Assembly: GCA_963698075.1 (NCBI GenBank)
Contig: OY969116.1
Coordinates: forward strand, 313,010 to 377,009
DNA: 64,000 bases
Source: an uncultured Candidatus Berkelbacteria bacterium
Lineage (GTDB): Bacteria; Patescibacteriota; UBA1384; UBA12157; JAENIV01
Reading direction: 5' to 3'
Made by a program: the position numbers and the translations under genes. Shown piece after piece: positions 3,912 through 62,518 of this stretch (position 1 is the stretch's first letter; the number at the start of each line of letters is the position of its first letter). Under the pieces are notes generated by a model that had not been told where the DNA came from, did not search any database, and was given only the letters and a program-made list of their open reading frames with translations.

Positions 3912-5144
3912 TTAGGATGTGGCGATGCTAGCGTGCTCTTCGATACTAGCGTAAGGAAGGAAGGGCTCGACCCACTCCTCGACAGGTCTGGCGTCGAAGA
4001 TATTCCGGCGCAATAGCCGGTTGCCAACGGTTCCGATTGCCTGCTCCATCATCCAGACGGACTGGCGAGTGGCTTCCTCGATCTGCTGGTCAGTCACATA
4101 CTGGTTGATGTAATGGAGCCAGTCGTCCCCGTGGTCTCGCATTGCTGATTCCTTGGCCGCGTAGATCCCCTGTGCCCGGAAGACCGCGCGCTGGATCTCT
4201 TTATTCGCGGGAATCAGGTAATTGATATCACCTCGAGCGTAGGGAACTGCCAGGCGATTTTCATCGACCGTACAGGCGAAATCGCCGAAGCGTCCAGCGG
4301 CTTCCTCGACTTTGCCATCAATGTTGTCGATGCCCGCAGCCCGACAGAACGCGCGTTGATGATGGGCATTGCGCACTAACGTGGCCTGCCAGGCGGTGAA
4401 GGACAGATCGTCGAGATGCATGAAGCGCTGAGCTTCCTCGGGGGTGATGTCCTTATCGCCGGCCGGATCGTACTTTGCGTTGAAACTGATCGCCGGTTCA
4501 TCCATGAGGAATCCAGGGTTCGGAATCCGGTCGAGGTTGGCGTCGGCGAATACCTGCCGCATCTTGGGATCTTCCATGATTCCAGGAATCGCCCGAATCT
4601 CGTCGAGCCCGACGACCGTCTCGTCATAGGTCGCCAACTGCTCATAGCGATTCCCCATGCCCGCGGCGTTGAAGATCCGTTTGAATGTTGAGCTGCCGAG
4701 CGGGAAGCCGAACCGGAAGATGCATTCGGCGTCCGAGACGAAGGTCGTTATATGGCCGGCTGCGATGAGGCGGTGGTAGATGGCGCGGCTCTCGACAGTG
4801 AGAACGTCGCTGAGGATGTATGGGGTGGCCGCCAACCGCATAACCACCTTGTTGCTCTTCTCTCCTCGGTCAAGGAGAGTCCCGACGGTAACGACCTGGT
4901 CGCCATGATCCAGCATGCCGACGTAGGTGCTCCGGAACCCGGCCTTAGCCGCTTCTTCCCAGTAGTATGCCGCGGTCATCGCGAGGACATATCTCTTGCC
5001 ACGTATCTCCTGTGATGGAATCTTCTTCTTGAGATCGGCGACCGAGAAGCGCCCGCTGACGATCCACGGTCCGATGCCCAGGTACCAAAGCCCGGGCGCC
5101 ACGAATTGCGGCCAGGTTGGATCCAAGTCCTTGACGCTACCCAT
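3912..5144 (-). CDS. ATP-dependent purine-pathway-type ligase (PurP/FAICAR-synthetase-like or PurC-like); GC-rich, assignment uncertain
   Basis: 410 aa; segments YVLAMTAAYYWEEAAKAGFRSTYV and GMGNRYEQLATYDE resemble archaeal PurP (TIATLGSH..KGAKxEGFxTV; GARGGRGYFIA). Partial resemblance to SAICAR synthetase also noted. GC about 58% against the low-GC background. Confidence 0.3.
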   Translation of the reverse strand: MGSVKDLDPTWPQFVAPGLWYLGIGPWIVSGRFSVADLKKKIPSQEIRGKRYVLAMTAAYYWEEAAKAGFRSTYVGMLDHGDQVVTVGTLLDRGEKSNKVVMRLAATPYILSDVLTVESRAIYHRLIAAGHITTFVSDAECIFRFGFPLGSSTFKRIFNAAGMGNRYEQLATYDETVVGLDEIRAIPGIMEDPKMRQVFADANLDRIPNPGFLMDEPAISFNAKYDPAGDKDITPEEAQRFMHLDDLSFTAWQATLVRNAHHQRAFCRAAGIDNIDGKVEEAAGRFGDFACTVDENRLAVPYARGDINYLIPANKEIQRAVFRAQGIYAAKESAMRDHGDDWLHYINQYVTDQQIEEATRQSVWMMEQAIGTVGNRLLRRNIFDARPVEEWVEPFLPYASIEEHASIATS

Positions 5145-38062: not shown

Positions 38063-38365
38063 GGGGCTATCAAGCTTCGACGGGAAACAATTTGACAATT
38101 TCAAGTCGAGAAGGCTACGAACCTCGCAAAATCCGTGGCAAACACTAAACGCTAACAAGCAATTAGTACCTGCCTTAGCCTAATAGGCTAATGCACGTCG
38201 TTCCATTTGTTGGTTGACCGAATGGAAACGGCGCCAACCGTCAACCTCTGGGGATGGAAGATCGTCCTGGTACTATCCTTGAAACAAACGAGGGCAAATG
38301 CTAAGCTTGTCAACGATTATCAAAGAGTTTTTCGGACGGGAGTGCGATTCTCCCTAGCTCCACCA
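38063..38365 (+). ncRNA. ssrA: tmRNA (ssrA), short form with encoded CCA
   Basis: 5' GGGGCUAUCAAGCUUCGACGGG and 3' GGACGGGAGUGCGAUUCUCCCUAGCUCCACCA match tmRNA tRNA-like-domain consensus. Internal frame gct aac aag caa tta gta cct gcc tta gcc TAA TAG (tag ANKQLVPALA). Confidence 0.8.
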
Positions 38366-55655: not shown

Positions 55656-56066
55656 CTACCTATTAACTAAATCTTGCCAATGCTCTTCCAAAAATTGTTT
55701 TTCCTGTGTGAAACCCAAGTCTCTCATTGCTTCTTCGTAGGTAAACCAGTCGTAGTCTTCGTCTGCAGCTTGGTGTTTATAATCATCAGTTTCCAACAAA
55801 AAGAGGTGTATTACTTTTTCTACAACTTCGCCAGTGTCTTCCTTAGATTGCCTTGTTATAGTTCCTAATTTCTTTATCGCTCTCAATCCTTCTAAACCAG
55901 TTTCTTCTTTAACTTCTCTAAGAGCGGTCTGTTCTTCCGTCTCGGCTTTTTGTATATGACCTTTCGGAAACACAAGAAACCCATCCTTGTGTCTAACGAG
56001 AAGCAAGAGTGCGTTTTTGCCATCTCTTTTTAAGACTAAACCGCCAGAAGAATAAGTTTTTTTCAT
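55656..56066 (-). CDS. NUDIX hydrolase
   Basis: GHIQKAETEEQTALREVKEETG Nudix box. Confidence 0.7.
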   Translation of the reverse strand: MKKTYSSGGLVLKRDGKNALLLLVRHKDGFLVFPKGHIQKAETEEQTALREVKEETGLEGLRAIKKLGTITRQSKEDTGEVVEKVIHLFLLETDDYKHQAADEDYDWFTYEEAMRDLGFTQEKQFLEEHWQDLVNR

Positions 56067-56184
56067 CCTATTTCTAACTTAGCAGATAAGCACTTGTCAA
56101 ACAATAAAAAATAGGTCATCACCCCAACGGGATTAGAACCTATTTTCTCCTGTTACTATAATTTCTTAATTTTGTTAACAGGTT

Positions 56185-56225
56185 TGGTAGCGCCGACGGG
56201 ATTCGAAGGTCGGTGTCCAACCGAC
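56185..56225 (-). repeat. Duplicated 3' end (23 nt) of tRNA-Glu fused to shared hairpin motif GGTCGGTGTCCAACCGAC
   Basis: tggtagcgccgacgggattcgaa is identical to tRNA-Glu 56364-56386, but the T-stem partner is absent so it is not a tRNA. Same 18-nt motif follows the tRNA-Lys fragment at 57523-57540. Confidence 0.5.
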
Positions 56226-56363
56226 ATTCCTATCGCGCTCGTATTGATTATCTGATATTTTTTCTGATACTGCAATAAAAATCATTCTAAAAGGTCACGT
56301 CCATCATTCCGGGTTCTACCGCGACATTACCAAACACAAAAAGACCACCAGGGTCTTTGTGTT

Positions 56364-56441
56364 TGGTAGCGCCGACGGGATTCGAACCCGTGATCTCCAG
56401 GATGAAAACCTGGTATCCTAAACCAACTAGACGACGGCGCC
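56364..56441 (-). tRNA. tRNA-Glu (anticodon TTC) with CCA
   Basis: rc ggcgccg...ccagg-ttttcat-cctgg...acggg-ttcgaat-cccgt-cggcgct-a-cca. Its 5' 25 nt are duplicated at 56516-56540. Confidence 0.85.
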
Positions 56442-56861
56442 ATAATGCTTATTTGTCAACTAACGATATATTTCTGGAGCTTTGTTCCAGTGGATGAAAA
56501 CCGCCGTGTACGGCCCTAAACCAACTAGACGACGGCGCCATATTACCATTTTATATGACAATAAGCCTGAAGTAAAGGAGAAACGGTTTTGCTGCAACAA
56601 AAATAACCCCTCGCATAAAGCTGTGGGTTACACCCTTACTTCCTTGTCGCTTCTGGCTTGCCACCCGAAGCTCCAAAGGAACGAAAGGTGGAGAGACATT
56701 CGGGTCTAGAACCTTTTGGCTCTTTTTTATTAATGAAGCAATTTCCTTTTTTCATAAAGGGGTTTAATTTCTTCAGTTAATTGGTTAGTCACTGCATTCC
56801 CTTCATTCTTTTCTCTGTGGTCTCGATCTACAGCCGTGTATGAGATTTGCCACTGTATTCG

Positions 56862-57422
56862 TTATTTAGTCTGATTTAGCGCATCTTTAATATTGCCCCA
56901 GTATTCTTTGGTCGTATCGAAGAACGGTACATTCAGCTTCTTGCAAACCTCCTCTAAACGTTTACTTTCTGATATCAAAAACTCGAACTCCTCAAGTAAT
57001 TCCTCGTTGCTCATTTCATTAGTCCAGTTGGTTACGTCAAATTCGCGGCATTTTGCCAGTCGTTCTTGTGGTGTTGTATTTGGATAACCAAATACAAAAT
57101 ATTGTAAGTGAGGATACTTCGCATACAAATCCTCAAGCGGCAGAAGGAAGCCTTCAATCACAAAGCCATCTACATCCATTCCGTCGATCATTCGGAAGAC
57201 AAAAGGTCTAAACTTTTGACACACCTCGATGTGTTCTTTGAGGTTGGGCGCTCTATGTGTAATACCTAGCTGCGGAAACACATCCTCAAATCCCTCGATA
57301 ATCGGGTCAATACAAATATGCTGAACAAAATATTTCTTCACCAATTCGTGAGAAAAAGTAGACTTACCGGCAGTGGGTACGCCAGTGACTATAAATTGAT
57401 GAAATTTCTGTTCTTGTCCCAT
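56862..57422 (-). CDS. P-loop NTPase/kinase-like protein
   Basis: IVTGVPTAGKST Walker A; 186 aa; sits between the two tRNA-fragment scars. Confidence 0.4.
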   Translation of the reverse strand: MGQEQKFHQFIVTGVPTAGKSTFSHELVKKYFVQHICIDPIIEGFEDVFPQLGITHRAPNLKEHIEVCQKFRPFVFRMIDGMDVDGFVIEGFLLPLEDLYAKYPHLQYFVFGYPNTTPQERLAKCREFDVTNWTNEMSNEELLEEFEFLISESKRLEEVCKKLNVPFFDTTKEYWGNIKDALNQTK

Positions 57423-57498
57423 AACTTGAATCCCTTTGTTCTTGTATCTTAGAGTCTTTTTTGCTTCTCCTACCTTTTACGCGGTCCCAAGCTTCTAA

Positions 57499-57540
57499 TT
57501 GGAGGGCTCGGTGGGATTCGAAGGTCGGTGTCCAACCGAC
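57499..57540 (-). repeat. Duplicated 3' end (24 nt) of tRNA-Lys fused to GGTCGGTGTCCAACCGAC motif
   Basis: ttggagggctcggtgggattcgaa is identical to 57685-57708 of tRNA-Lys, followed by the 18-nt hairpin motif instead of the T-stem. Confidence 0.5.
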
Positions 57541-57685
57541 GTCTCGATTCGTGCTTGTATTGGTTTATCTTAATTTAATGGCTCAATCCATCTGAGCCGT
57601 TCAATTTCTATCTCGTCGGCTATCATTGTGGGTTCTCACCCAACCGACCCAAGCCAGAAACCCCGATAAACCAGGGGTTCTGGCT

Positions 57686-57760
57686 TGGAGGGCTCGGTGG
57701 GATTCGAACCCACGACAAGTTGCTTAAGAGGCAACTGCTCTGCCACTGAGCTACGAGCCC
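57686..57760 (-). tRNA. tRNA-Lys (anticodon CTT) with CCA
   Basis: rc gggctcg-ta-gctc-agtggca-gagc-a-gttgc-ctcttaa-gcaac-ttgtc-gtggg-ttcgaat-cccac-cgagccc-t-cca. Confidence 0.85.
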
Positions 57761-57761
57761 A

Positions 57762-57834
57762 CGCCCTCGGCGTGATTCGAACACGCAACCTAAGGGTTAG
57801 AAACCCTTCGCTCTATCCATTAAGCTACGAGGGC
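57762..57834 (-). tRNA. tRNA-Arg (anticodon TCT), no CCA
   Basis: rc gccctcg-ta-gctt-aatggata-gagc-g-aaggg-tttctaa-ccctt-aggtt-gcgtg-ttcgaat-cacgc-cgagggc-g. Confidence 0.8.
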
Positions 57835-57849
57835 AAAATGCTCTACTCA

Positions 57850-57914
57850 CCCCGTTAATTCCGCACTATCATAATACTATGGAATAGATTTGATAGTAAG
57901 GAATTTTGCGGGGT
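57850..57914. repeat. 65-bp repeat copy 2, adjacent to a tRNA 5'-fragment-like sequence
   Basis: About 83% identical to 21759-21823. Followed by ccactgagctacaggggc (rc gcccctgtagctcagtgg, a tRNA acceptor+D-arm-like 5' fragment). Confidence 0.4.
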
Positions 57915-58024
57915 CCACTGAGCTACAGGGGCATCAAGTAAATTATACCAGATAACCATTTGATGAAAAAGAGACCCAGCCCCCCCCAAGTGGGGGCTGG
58001 GTCTTCGGCAGGCCGCGATTGAAA

Positions 58025-58756
58025 CTACCACCAGTCGACGGCCTGGGATACTTCGACCTCCTCCCCCTCATCGATACTAAAATGGACCGGCAGGGTAAGG
58101 GCTGCGTAGGGCCCCCATCCCAGCGACACCGTATAGCTGCCGGCAAAGAGCTCGGGCCAAACGGCCTGGCCCGAGGAGTTGGTGTAATGATACTCCTCCA
58201 CATGGAGGAGTCCCCCTAGTGTCAATCCATCCAACCAAACCAGGACGCCCGGCGCGGGAGCGCCAGACTCATCGGTCACTGTTGCGGTCACCCTCGAGTA
58301 CTCGCACACATCGAGGGCAACGACGTGGATTTCGCCGGGGGTGCCGGCGAAGTCGATGGTCGCCGTATCTCCATCCTGGCGAAGTCCATCGACCTGCATA
58401 AAGGTCCACCAGTCAGAGGGAAGCTGGAAGATAACCCTCCATTTCCCTCTCGACGCCCTTACCTCAACCGGCGTCGAATACCTCTTGGTCTTTCCGTCGG
58501 GGTTGATGACCCACACCCGCCAGGCGAGCCATTGCTCGCCTAGATCTAGATCCAGGACGAAGTCCAGGTCCTTGTCATCCAAGACTCGGACCTGAAGCTG
58601 AGGCCAAGACGGTCCTCCCTTCTTGAGGGGAACCGCCGGCCCTGCCATCGCACTTGAGGCGATGGCGCAGAGCAACATCGACACTACCAGGAACTGCAAT
58701 ACAGCACCAACCCTTCGTCTCGACATCTTCGGACCCCTCCGTGCCAGTATCCCCAA
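58025..58756 (-). CDS. Secreted GC-rich protein with Ig/prealbumin-like (CarboxypepD_reg-like) C-terminal domain
   Basis: Signal peptide (AVLQFLVVSMLLCAIASSAMA). SGAPAPGVLVWLDG...TNSSGQAVWPELFAGSYTVSL. GC about 65%. Confidence 0.4.
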   Translation of the reverse strand: MGILARRGPKMSRRRVGAVLQFLVVSMLLCAIASSAMAGPAVPLKKGGPSWPQLQVRVLDDKDLDFVLDLDLGEQWLAWRVWVINPDGKTKRYSTPVEVRASRGKWRVIFQLPSDWWTFMQVDGLRQDGDTATIDFAGTPGEIHVVALDVCEYSRVTATVTDESGAPAPGVLVWLDGLTLGGLLHVEEYHYTNSSGQAVWPELFAGSYTVSLGWGPYAALTLPVHFSIDEGEEVEVSQAVDWW

Positions 58757-58892
58757 AACTTCTCTCGGGGGTGGAACTCAGCCTAAATGCCCCTCATCTC
58801 TCCTTTCTCCCTCCTCACCAAATTGTAAAAATCCCAAACCTGGCCACATTATATCGAGAATTTATATAAAAGTCAAGAGTAAGATACCTTAT

Positions 58893-60743: not shown

Positions 60744-61820
60744 TTATCCGACGCTTCCCAGATCGGCGTTGCGCAAGTCTTCGGCGGCATGCTCAGGTGT
60801 GCGGGGATTGATGTAGGCGCCCGAGCCCTTCTCGAGGGCCGCCAGAATTGCTTCGGTGATTGGTTCGATCTGACAATGCCAATGATAGGTCTCTAGCTCA
60901 GTGTCGGTGGGAGGGGCAGTGTGGAAGTAGAGGTTGTAGTCAGGGTCGTTGAGTGTTACCCGAATCCTCTTCAGCGTCTCCTGTAGCAACAAGGCGAATT
61001 CCGTCAGAAGGTCGGCTCCTTGAGGATGGGTCGAGATGTTGGCAAAGTAGCTCTGGTGATACCGCGGTCCCACAATAACCTGATAAGGCGTCCTTGAGGT
61101 GAAGGGACACCAAGCCATGAAGTTTTCGGTGACATTGATCAACCGTTCCTTGGCAAGCAGTTCCCAATCTCTCTCCTCACAGTAGAAACAGGAGCGATTC
61201 AGGTCATAATAGTGCCGGGCGCCTGCCAACTCATGGTAGATCCGCGCTGGCAATGTCGGTAGCGCCACCAACTGGCTGTGGGGATGGGGTTGGCTGGCGC
61301 CAGCGAGCGGTCCATAATTCTTGAAGAGAAAGATGCAGTGGATGTTCCGTTTACTTCCGATTGCCAAGGTCATCTCCCGCCACATGTGCAAGACTTCGCG
61401 GAAGTAGAAGGGGTCGAGAGTCTCAAGAGCAACATCGTGTCGAGGTGATTCGATGATGACATAGTGGAAGCCGAAAGCCGGCAATACCGTAAACGGTCCA
61501 CGCTTCTCCACCACCAGAATCTCTGAAGGAATCGAGGCGTTCACTGCCGGCGCTAGGTTCGGTACGACTCTCACCCACCAGCCAGGATTGTCTGCCTTCG
61601 TCTCTTTAGCACGATAGGAACTTACTTCCTTCGGGGTCTGGCTCTCCCGACCCTCTTCGAAAGAACACTCTTCGCCGCTGACGAGGCGCGGGTTGAACCT
61701 GGACCAATCGCGCTCTTTCTGCCGCCGTAACTTCTCCAACGGCTTCTCCCGGTCTGAACCGATGATCACCAGCGTCCCCGAAATCGGGTTCCTTCTTAGC
61801 TCTTCCACACGACCTGGCAT
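60744..61820 (-). CDS. galT: Galactose-1-phosphate uridylyltransferase-like (GalT/HIT superfamily) protein, GC-rich
   Basis: SQPHPHSQL matches the GalT HPH active-site motif. CFYCE..C/H zinc-site-like residues. ATG 61820 with aggagg SD. The track ORF's upstream 71 residues read through tRNA-His and are artifactual. Confidence 0.55.
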   Translation of the reverse strand: MPGRVEELRRNPISGTLVIIGSDREKPLEKLRRQKERDWSRFNPRLVSGEECSFEEGRESQTPKEVSSYRAKETKADNPGWWVRVVPNLAPAVNASIPSEILVVEKRGPFTVLPAFGFHYVIIESPRHDVALETLDPFYFREVLHMWREMTLAIGSKRNIHCIFLFKNYGPLAGASQPHPHSQLVALPTLPARIYHELAGARHYYDLNRSCFYCEERDWELLAKERLINVTENFMAWCPFTSRTPYQVIVGPRYHQSYFANISTHPQGADLLTEFALLLQETLKRIRVTLNDPDYNLYFHTAPPTDTELETYHWHCQIEPITEAILAALEKGSGAYINPRTPEHAAEDLRNADLGSVG

Positions 61821-61924
61821 CACAGGCCTCCTTGTACCAAAAAGAACCAGTCCTTCTGGTCCTCGTGGTTTTGTCAAAGGTCTACGATAACCACAATAGA
61901 CCTTATACTTTAGTTTGTCAAGAT

Positions 61925-62000
61925 TGGGGTGGCTGACGCGATTCGAACGCGCGACCGCTCGGGCCACATCCGAGTGCTCTACCACTGAGCTACAGCCACC
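61925..62000 (-). tRNA. tRNA-His (anticodon GTG) with encoded G-1 and CCA
   Basis: rc g-gtggctg-ta-gctc-agtggta-gagc-a-ctcgg-atgtggc-ccgag-cggtc-gcgcg-ttcgaat-cgcgt-cagccac-c-cca. Confidence 0.85.
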
Positions 62001-62186
62001 ATATATAAAATGAATCTGCCTTTTGAAGGCCAAATCTCAAATTCTTGCTGATAAATCAATAAATCCCTAAACTACTACTTTTTACGGGACGCCAACCACC
62101 AAATCAGGGCAACGACGACGACGGCAATGACTACCCACCAATACCAAACCATTAAAATCTCCTTTCATTATCATTATACCATTAAT

Positions 62187-62261
62187 TGGTGCCCCCGGGT
62201 GGATTCGAACCACCAACTCTAGGTCCGAAGCCTAGTGTTTTATCCGTTATACTACGGGGGC
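62187..62261 (-). tRNA. tRNA-Arg (anticodon TCG) with CCA
   Basis: rc gcccccg-ta-gtat-aacggata-aaac-a-ctagg-cttcgga-cctag-agtt-ggtgg-ttcgaat-ccacc-cgggggc-a-cca. Confidence 0.8.
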
Positions 62262-62518
62262 AGATTGAACTTTAAACTATTTTTTAATTGCTCTTTCAAT
62301 CTTACTCGACCTGGTCCACTTTTTAAATATCTTTCTCTTCCCTTGGCATCATCTCGATTTAGGTAAGCTTCAAAATAGAGTAACTTATATGGTCTATGTT
62401 GATTGGTATATCTTGAAAATCCTTTATTATGGTCGGAGAATCTCCTCTTTATGTCAGATGTTTCACCGATATACCAACTTTTGTCTTTTAAACTTATTAA
62501 AAGATAAACGTAATGCAT
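62252..62518 (-). CDS. GIY-YIG nuclease-domain protein (YhbQ/UPF0213-like)
   Basis: YVYLLISLKDKSWYIGETSDIKRRFSDHN. Last 3 codons and stop overlap the tRNA-Arg(TCG) 5' end. Confidence 0.55.
   Translation of the reverse strand: MHYVYLLISLKDKSWYIGETSDIKRRFSDHNKGFSRYTNQHRPYKLLYFEAYLNRDDAKGRERYLKSGPGRVRLKEQLKNSLKFNLPP

Follow-up and report, generated by a model that had tools for sequence, protein, structure and literature searches.

Size-constant, geneless units at tRNA genes of Patescibacteria resemble a family of non-autonomous, tRNA-targeting integrative elements

In a 64,000-nucleotide (nt) stretch of DNA from an uncultured Candidatus Berkelbacteria bacterium (contig OY969116.1; hereafter the window), the transfer RNA (tRNA) genes tRNA-Glu(ttc) and tRNA-Lys(ctt) are each followed by a unit of about 180 bp, at the far end of which the tRNA gene's 3′ end is repeated. 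Units of one and the same architecture are present in 18 copies, involving about ten tRNA species, in contigs of Patescibacteria, also known as the candidate phyla radiation (CPR). The explanation that we favour, with a confidence that is even rather than high, is that the two units are members of a Patescibacteria family of non-autonomous integrative elements, which insert at the T-loop of tRNA genes and depend on mobilisation in trans. Throughout, positions are those of the whole 64-kb window, and L-numbers (L007, L028 and so on) denote comparison loci from other contigs.

A repeat finder recovered the ends of both tRNA genes a second time downstream. The segment 56182-56207 equals 56361-56386 in 26 of 26 nt (the tRNA-Glu 3′ end with CCA and three further nucleotides), and 57499-57522 equals 57685-57708 in 24 of 24 nt (the tRNA-Lys 3′ end), with a repeat spacing, and hence a unit length, of 179 bp for Glu and 186 bp for Lys. 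The same 18-nt hairpin precedes each displaced copy, and the 28-nt block GGGATTCGAAGGTCGGTGTCCAACCGAC occurs exactly at both 56198-56225 and 57513-57540. The 18-mer GGTCGGTGTCCAACCGAC has two sites in the window, even when three mismatches are allowed, and none in 100 shuffled sequences. A first-pass annotation of the window had noticed the recurring tRNA ends and the motif common to both, and these exact repeats bear it out, as does inverted-repeat finding for the strong hairpins that it had placed right after both tRNAs. It needs correction in one respect: the Glu and Lys segments are homologous well beyond the 18 nt, and the entire stretch of ~160 nt constitutes one unit.

Read in the sense of the tRNA, the units share a fixed order. 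The tRNA, whose part from T54 to the 3′ end we call S1, is followed by a hairpin (P0), a segment A, the sequence UGAGAA, the cognate T-stem 3′ strand, AAUGAUAG, a spacer, (A)AGCACGAAUCGAGAC, an invariant hairpin with one C after it, and finally S2, which repeats the tRNA from T54 as far as the discriminator or CCA. The invariant hairpin is GUCGGU/UGGAC/ACCGAC (17 nt). Segment A reproduces tRNA positions 73 to 61 in antisense and in degenerate form, with UGAGAA standing where the antisense T-loop would be; on its sequence, A also looks like an acceptor 5′ strand joined to a T-stem 5′ strand. Pairing is predicted to be possible between GAAUCGAG and UUCGAAUC of S2 and, in the Lys unit, between GAATCGAG and the T-loop bases 3′ of the hairpin (helix P3). 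The spacer of the Lys subfamily contains a further hairpin, AACGGCTCA(N7)TGAGCCATT, at 57577-57601, as well as an AGATAA box. P0 is of the intrinsic-terminator type, namely a G+C-containing stem-loop followed by a T run, in the Glu unit (on both strands) and in L028; in the Lys P0 the T run is weak, and the terminator scan did not call it. Because those window tRNAs that have no element lack both P0 and A, these two segments belong to the insert. Units of 174-188 bp contain no open reading frame (ORF).

The motif, which the first-pass annotation had suggested searching for next to other tRNA 3′ ends, lies beside the 3′ ends of other tRNAs as well. Scans with the 18-mer over one genome collection and one metagenome returned ~20 low-GC Patescibacteria contigs that share the architecture, along with many chance matches in high-GC DNA (nine chance matches in high-GC genomes and one true match in the scan of genome contigs). 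The host tRNAs are Gln (three lineages), Asp (two), Ser(cga), Ser(gga), Tyr, Arg(tct) (three), Lys(ctt), Lys(ttt), Glu (three) and Leu(taa). In 17 of the 18 copies the S1-to-S2 distance is 174-188 bp, the exception being L047 with 2403 bp, and the spacer, taken from AAUGAUAG to GAAUCGAGAC, measures 62-67 nt in 17 of 17 copies, its sequence being at background identity between subfamilies. Apart from one loop change in the L030 Glu copy, the hairpin is identical in all copies, and so is the junction between the hairpin and T54 in 18 of 18. Over 20 nt, S1 and S2 are identical in ten of the 18 pairs and differ by one to three mismatches in seven more. The left edge of the repeat is fixed at T54 in every copy; its right edge varies, falling at position 73, at position 76 or up to ~9 nt beyond (67 nt in L025). 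A covariance model of the 3′ module retrieved no diverged copies from ~400 kb of related CPR loci. ORF clustering around 17 loci revealed syntenic housekeeping genes only, with no recurrent neighbour protein, and neither the 18 copies nor the viral contigs yielded an autonomous parent that has these ends. The earlier proposal of one family of tiny elements is supported, the units being geneless and bounded by a regenerated tRNA and a displaced tRNA 3′ fragment; they are not decaying scars, however, but are constant in size and retain conserved boxes and an invariant hairpin.

Evidence that the unit moves comes from comparing related loci. In many relatives, the operon Arg(tct)-Lys(ctt)-Glu(ttc) sits behind the same ABC transporter genes, and the position of the unit within it differs: in the window and L030 it follows both Lys and Glu, in L028/L041, L031 and L048 it follows Arg, and in L044 it follows Glu alone. 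By its ABC permease next to the operon, the window belongs to Berkelbacteria-like CPR, and an identical permease is encoded on a 929-kb contig. Six syntenic Arg-Lys clusters (L064/65, L066/67, L068, L069, L074/75 and L076) are devoid of a unit, and a decayed unit remnant follows Glu in L064. The empty sites that the first-pass annotation had suggested looking for do exist in related genomes, as the same tRNA-Arg allele is empty in L030 and filled in L028 and L031, where it has gained the unit and a 20-nt duplication with no other change; in L028, S2 adjoins tRNA-Lys exactly as in the unbroken tandem. The spacer of the window Lys unit shares an identity of 0.79-0.81 with that of Ser(gga), 0.76 with Arg, 0.75 with Ser(cga) and 0.63 with the window Glu unit. 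Spacer subfamilies therefore cut across tRNA identity, which indicates that the unit moved between tRNA species. In L025, the chromosome contains a hairpin joined directly to S-P0-A and then a truncation, as expected of a tandem insertion or a closed form. In L047, tRNA-Leu(taa) is followed by a 733-aa ORF, an S8-like peptidase as judged by eye from its translation, and then by A, GATAGAGAT, the hairpin and S2, with the right end of the element 2.4 kb from the tRNA and the repeat running ~9 nt into the flank. Taken together, the fixed edge at T54, the variable right edge, the tRNA end and terminator supplied by the element, the occurrence of empty as well as filled sites, the tandem junction and the copy with cargo lead us to propose tRNA-targeting integration.

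In the mechanism that we envisage, a small DNA unit would hold, in this order, S, P0, A, purine boxes (UGAGAA, AAUGAUAG and more of the GATAR type), an AT-rich spacer of 62-67 bp and the 17-nt hairpin. In a closed form or a tandem, the hairpin would abut S, so that ...GGACACCGACC would be joined to TTCGAAT-S-P0. A recombinase from elsewhere in the genome, most likely a tyrosine recombinase, would bind the invariant hairpin and the boxes, and strand exchange would take place inside or at the edge of the universal T-loop TTCGAAT, possibly by way of a circular or a single-stranded intermediate. After integration, S and P0 of the element would complete and terminate the tRNA, with the original 3′ end pushed ~180 bp downstream, right after the hairpin. 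The same ends may also enclose cargo, as in L047.

Several considerations weigh against integration of this kind. No integrase is encoded within the units or next to a copy, and no recombinase or Phage_integrase match came out of a Pfam scan that covered 20 window ORFs; the tyrosine integrase that the first-pass annotation had suggested looking for was not found in the elements, next to them or among these ORFs. The hairpin is also absent from 2.9 million viral contigs (of four patterns, two had no match and two had chance matches only), and thus no phage attP is known. A double-stranded circle of 175-190 bp would be very small. At the presumed crossover, the element side is constant and the tRNA side, the T-stem 5′ strand, is variable. 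Moreover, a simple integrase model does not explain how the cognate A, pseudo-T-stem and S are reset when the tRNA changes, although such a reset might come about if the quasi-palindrome that the tRNA 3′ half makes with P0 and A were corrected through template switching. Finally, in L028, L031 and L048 the unit lies among the genes of a tRNA operon, has no promoter-like site between itself and the following tRNA, and is therefore probably co-transcribed, which makes a role as RNA possible, while L033 consists of P0-A-hairpin-S2 with no tRNA in the 1.2 kb upstream.

The latter two points bring in an alternative that we consider unlikely, namely that the unit encodes a structured non-coding RNA derived from a tRNA, which would be transcribed together with the tRNA gene and freed by RNase P and 3′ processing, the spread of the unit being secondary. 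Here A would pair with S2 to yield a minihelix-like end with a T-loop and often CCA, and the UGAGAA loop (GNRA- or T-loop-like) and the hairpin would make protein or tertiary contacts. Consistent with this, the A:S pairing is cognate-specific (mean duplex energy -14.0 kcal/mol for cognate and -10.0 kcal/mol for non-cognate combinations, p = 3e-4; the cognate is best-ranked in 10 of 18), it is kept in L020 and L047, where A tracks S2 while S1 differs or lies far off, and the A:S2 helix often closes the unit in minimum-free-energy folds. The read-through implied in L028 by the lack of a promoter between unit and next tRNA and, in L033, a TGnTATAAT-like site ~25 nt upstream of P0 point the same way, as do the strand-specific GATAR boxes, located at about -80, -72, -28 and -9 from the hairpin (40 sense against 1 antisense, with 7.3 expected; the copies are related, and so the counts yield no clean probability). 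However, no Rfam family corresponds to the unit, the RNAalifold consensus is confined to the hairpin region with a two-sided change at a single pair, and the hairpin stems are invariant instead of covarying. Whole units have mostly weak fold z-scores, and for spacers of the Gln, Glu, Asp(L023) and Tyr types no fold is predicted (z near 0 or positive). In addition, P0, which lies upstream of the unit, scores as a terminator, and in L045 a decayed S2 has lost its pairing with A, which there tracks S1. The unit is also dispensable, most related genomes being without it and the L064 copy being decayed, and the L047 copy bounds a cargo gene. In favour of a DNA site, a spacer of constant length with no predicted fold in several types, strand-biased GATAR boxes and an invariant hairpin form a pattern that suits spaced protein-binding sites. 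In another interpretation, which we hold to be quite unlikely, the unit would be the attachment module of an integron-like, tRNA-anchored capture system. A folded single strand, with the tRNA 3′ half or S2 paired with A and the hairpin as a cap, would then mimic the cognate tRNA gene's 3′ end in duplex form and would be recombined at G53/T54 by a host recombinase or an RNA-guided enzyme. Geneless units and small cassettes (the L047 peptidase gene and perhaps the ATPase, NUDIX and GIY-YIG genes by S2) would be inserted at any tRNA, and the cognate segments would be reset through template switching on the tRNA hairpin.

A further explanation, in our judgement a very unlikely one, treats the unit as a passenger of the tRNA allele and thus as a by-product of tRNA-gene replacement, in which free-standing GIY-YIG or HNH nucleases cut and the break is repaired with foreign DNA at the D- and T-loop boxes. 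The loci are indeed full of tRNA 5′ and 3′ remnants, with breakpoints at 19/20, 43/44 and 53/54; GIY-YIG ORFs lie by tRNAs or right after S2 in the window, L007, L048 and L033, and an ORF of the HNH type (by eye) adjoins tRNA-Leu in L047. Nevertheless, random repair would not reproduce a junction of hairpin and T54 that is identical in 18 copies on about ten tRNA species, nor would it account for a fixed unit length or for one tRNA-Arg allele that is both filled and empty. Transposons of type V-K use a delocalised CRISPR RNA (crRNA) for homing to tRNA genes, and the unit may similarly be read as a natural single-guide RNA with a scaffold, a terminal hairpin and a 3′ 'guide' of 20-23 nt that equals the tRNA from T54, serving homing to, or retention at, tRNA genes. 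As the target is preceded by G53 (GTT) and the self copy by C (CTT), self and non-self could be told apart in the manner of a protospacer- or target-adjacent motif. The constant length of the scaffold, the succession of a hairpin, one base and ~20 nt identical to the neighbouring gene, and the fact that it is precisely the base 5′ of T54 that distinguishes the self copy from the target would all fit. Even so, we regard a guide as highly improbable: genes for TnpB, IscB, Cas12 or Tn7-like proteins were not found next to any copy, Rfam returned no omega-RNA or CRISPR-type match, the 'guide' would be sequestered by A and would match the essential tRNA gene of the cell itself, and in some copies S2 is decayed. 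Similarity by chance or an artefact of assembly, which might be suspected because the comparison loci are metagenome assemblies, has a negligible probability in view of the lack of motif matches in shuffled sequences and the recurrence of the architecture in independent NCBI, JGI and ENA assemblies.

The first-pass annotation had also considered that the fragments might be parts of unusual tRNA or tRNA-like genes. With gathering and E-value thresholds, Rfam covariance models matched nothing over the units (56182-56363 and 57500-57685) on either strand, their matches being limited to three true tRNAs; a YrlA match of 35 bits (threshold 69) likewise lay on true tRNAs. No description of the element was found in Rfam or in searches of full-text literature. 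Other candidates were set aside on inspection. Hammerhead and other self-cleaving ribozymes, k-turns, C/D boxes and remnants of group I or II introns misfit in their core motifs or the order of these, as compared by eye. A tRNA-like gene on the plus strand, relying on GGTCGGT/ACCGACC pairing, would work for the Lys copy only (by eye), and in a dif-like 11-6-11 reading of the 28-nt block the arms are unrelated. The ends of IS200/IS605, IS91 and Tn7-like elements and staggered insertion of the Cas1 type would, by their mechanisms, leave three tRNA-cognate internal segments and a variable right edge unexplained.

The surroundings of the units contain additional insertions. An ATPase gene (56862-57422, with a weak AAA_18 match) had been regarded as cargo between the two sites, which proved untenable, as it is located outside the two units and is missing from L030, where both units are present. 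It is flanked by the Lys S2 and by a decayed S-like fragment (56689-56711) ending in TCCA, and, being bounded by tRNA-end fragments, may derive from an insertion at the same tRNA that was separate, older or independent. Relative to L030, this AAA-type ATPase gene and a NUDIX gene (55656-56066) are small insertions; the NUDIX gene adjoins a tRNA 3′-end-like fragment (56119-56150), and the fragment adjoining the ATPase gene has the same TCCA end as tRNA-Lys.

The tRNA 5′ fragments of the window stem from another process, the replacement of tRNA genes, and promoter-like sites lie just upstream of these old fragments. Three pieces picked out by the first-pass annotation could be assigned: the second copy of the tRNA-Glu 5′ end is matched in 28 of 28 nt at 56515-56542, the T-arm-like piece at 56117-56150 corresponds to a tRNA-Glu 3′ half that has decayed, and the 5′ fragment at 57914-57932 equals nt 1-19 of the tRNA-Arg(tct) allele of L028, L030 and L031. 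The last of these is situated downstream of a TG-extended TATAAT promoter-like site (57969-57942) and is followed by a 75-nt hairpin-forming stretch and then by a different tRNA-Arg(tct); an old tRNA-Arg gene seems to have been replaced from the D-loop onward, with its promoter kept. Upstream of tRNA-Glu, the window, L028 (with two such fragments) and L064 have conserved a pseudo 5′ part of tRNA-Glu, which covers positions 1-43 and has a 12-nt hairpin inserted, and tRNA-Glu 3′ remnants, decayed or intact (from about position 39-44), are present downstream. This nesting suggests that replacement tRNA-Glu genes were inserted repeatedly at ~43/44.

Small GIY-YIG ORFs (Table 1) are supported by Pfam in the window (E=1e-14) and in L048 (E=3.5e-15) and were recognised by eye in L007 and L033. 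In the window, the ORF and the 5′ end of tRNA-Arg(tcg) overlap, and in L048 and L033 the ORF comes directly after S2; these ORFs may be free-standing homing-type nucleases that act on tRNA loci. The first ~40 nt after S2 in L031, L048 and L033 have (C)TTCGC...GCT.A.GCG/CGG in common and lead into the GIY-YIG ORF in two of them, and may thus be the end of a separate small cassette. In L047, an HNH-looking ORF (4311-4820; CxxC ... HxxGD ... CPNCH, by eye) stops 5 nt before tRNA-Leu(taa). Between the ABC permease gene and the tRNA operon, the window has a GC-rich patch (57943-58800; 0.58-0.62 against ~0.40), which L030 lacks and which encompasses a 243-aa ORF with weak CarboxypepD_reg and Big_1 matches and a strong terminator (58004-57972). 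A second GC-rich stretch (60744-62033; 0.53-0.56) encodes a GalT/HIT-like protein, whose longest ORF crosses tRNA-His (61925-61999), so that the true start is probably near 61820. A one-piece transfer-messenger RNA (tmRNA) with the tag peptide ANKQLVPALA lies at 38063-38365 (Rfam 114.5 bits).

Table 1. Features of the two units, their host tRNA genes and associated tRNA-derived or nuclease-coding sequences (window positions unless a locus is named)
Feature	Position	Strand	Basis and remarks
tRNA-Glu(ttc)	56364-56441	minus	ARAGORN and Rfam; S1 = 56361-56386
Glu P0	56329-56367	minus	13-nt arms, 100% complementary; terminator-like score on both strands
Glu segment A, pseudo-T-arm and box, TAATGTCGCGG-TAGAA-CCCGG-AATGATGG	56301-56329	minus	Alignment
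Glu spacer (63 nt, predicted unstructured), then GATAGGAAT, invariant hairpin and C	56208-56300	minus	Alignment, fold z-scores
Glu S2, tRNA-Glu from T54 to CCA plus 3 nt	56182-56207	minus	26/26; unit length 179
tRNA-Lys(ctt)	57686-57760	minus	ARAGORN; Rfam tRNA 73.6 bits; last 23 nt (57686-57708, T54 to CCA) = S1
Lys P0, terminator-like hairpin, outer arm from the tRNA CCA	57649-57688	minus	15-nt arms, 93% complementary
Lys segment A and pseudo-T-arm, GGGTCGGTTGGG-TGAGAA-CCCAC	57628-57650	minus	Degenerate antisense of tRNA-Lys 49-73, T-loop changed to UGAGAA; 23 nt, 78% complementary to 57691-57713
Lys conserved box AATGATAG, first of several sense-strand GATAR boxes	57620-57627	minus	Alignment; GATAR enrichment
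Lys spacer, variable in sequence, constant in length	57551-57619	minus	Alignment
Lys GAATCGAGAC, invariant hairpin GTCGGT/TGGAC/ACCGAC and C	57523-57550	minus	Motif scan, repeat finder
Lys S2, copy of tRNA-Lys from T54 to CCA	57500-57522	minus	0 mismatches in 20 nt; unit length 186
tRNA-Arg(tct)	57761-57835	minus	ARAGORN and Rfam
tRNA-Glu remnants	56472-56542, 56119-56150; L028 2990-3220, 3380-3420; L064 2145-2235		
Small single-domain GIY-YIG ORFs (85-90 aa) by tRNAs	62252-62518; L007 5975-6235; L048 144-407; L033 5335-5571	minus (window)	

CPR bacteria combine tiny genomes and single-copy tRNA genes with a small number of recognised mobile elements. If our favoured interpretation is correct, a size-constant 180-bp unit with an invariant hairpin that splits and rebuilds many tRNA genes across distant lineages would imply a conserved enzyme acting in trans. 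The units would offer a route for the gain of small genes at tRNA loci, mark insertion hot spots and explain many of the "tRNA fragments" in CPR assemblies. Should the recombinase be found, they would constitute a compact, retargetable attachment site.

Integrases that target tRNA genes leave a regenerated tRNA and a displaced fragment, a signature by which tyrosine-integrase islands are mapped (PMC4383910). Mycobacteriophage Ms6 inserts at tRNA-Ala through a 26-bp attP/attB core that spans the T-arm to the 3′ end, and editing of this core can retarget it to other tRNA genes (PMC1762012). The units agree with both in their regenerated tRNA, in a displaced 3′ fragment of the same orientation, in a tRNA end supplied by the element and in an identity block that begins in the T-loop and reaches the 3′ end or, at times, slightly past it; they further resemble the islands in their empty and filled sites and tandem junctions. 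Unlike the islands, they have no integrase, are usually geneless and measure 174-188 bp instead of kilobases, and one unit family serves about ten tRNA species and contains an internal antisense copy of the tRNA end. In contrast to the Ms6 core, which begins in the T-stem 5′ strand, their identity begins at T54. Being short, geneless, present several times per genome and presumably mobilised in trans, they are akin to cis-mobilisable elements (CIMEs), which are flanked by att sites and lack an integrase, and to miniature inverted-repeat transposable elements (MITEs). They differ from MITEs by the absence of classical terminal inverted repeats and of a short (2-10 bp) target-site duplication, as one side of the unit is formed by P0 or S and the other by the hairpin, and the duplication is 20-30 bp long with one edge fixed.

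Further likenesses are found among folded recombination sites and RNAs. The predicted fold of the units, an imperfect long inverted repeat of ~60-140 nt with bulges and an unpaired centre, recalls integron attC sites and the XerCD-dependent attP of CTX-phi, as do the crossover beside a GTT triplet (positions 53-55) and the adjacent small cassettes; the units nevertheless show no RYYYAAC/GTTRRRY boxes in their alignment (by eye), no IntI and no cassette array with repeated sites. Their scaffold, hairpin and ~20 tRNA-identical nucleotides are reminiscent of TnpB omega-RNA, Cas12 crRNA and the homing crRNA of type V-K systems, from which they are distinguished by the absence of a nearby effector or repeat array, by a 'guide' that pairs with A and by a different insertion distance. 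With a T-loop and the 3′ strands of T-stem and acceptor at their 3′ end, often including CCA and paired with a 5′ strand, they resemble the tRNA-like domain of tmRNA, YrlA and mascRNA, although they have neither an intact T-arm nor a covariance-model match, and their sequence copies the neighbouring tRNA. Integration that targets tRNA genes is of a known kind, while a geneless, size-constant family that spans many tRNAs and carries an internal antisense copy of its target appears to be new.

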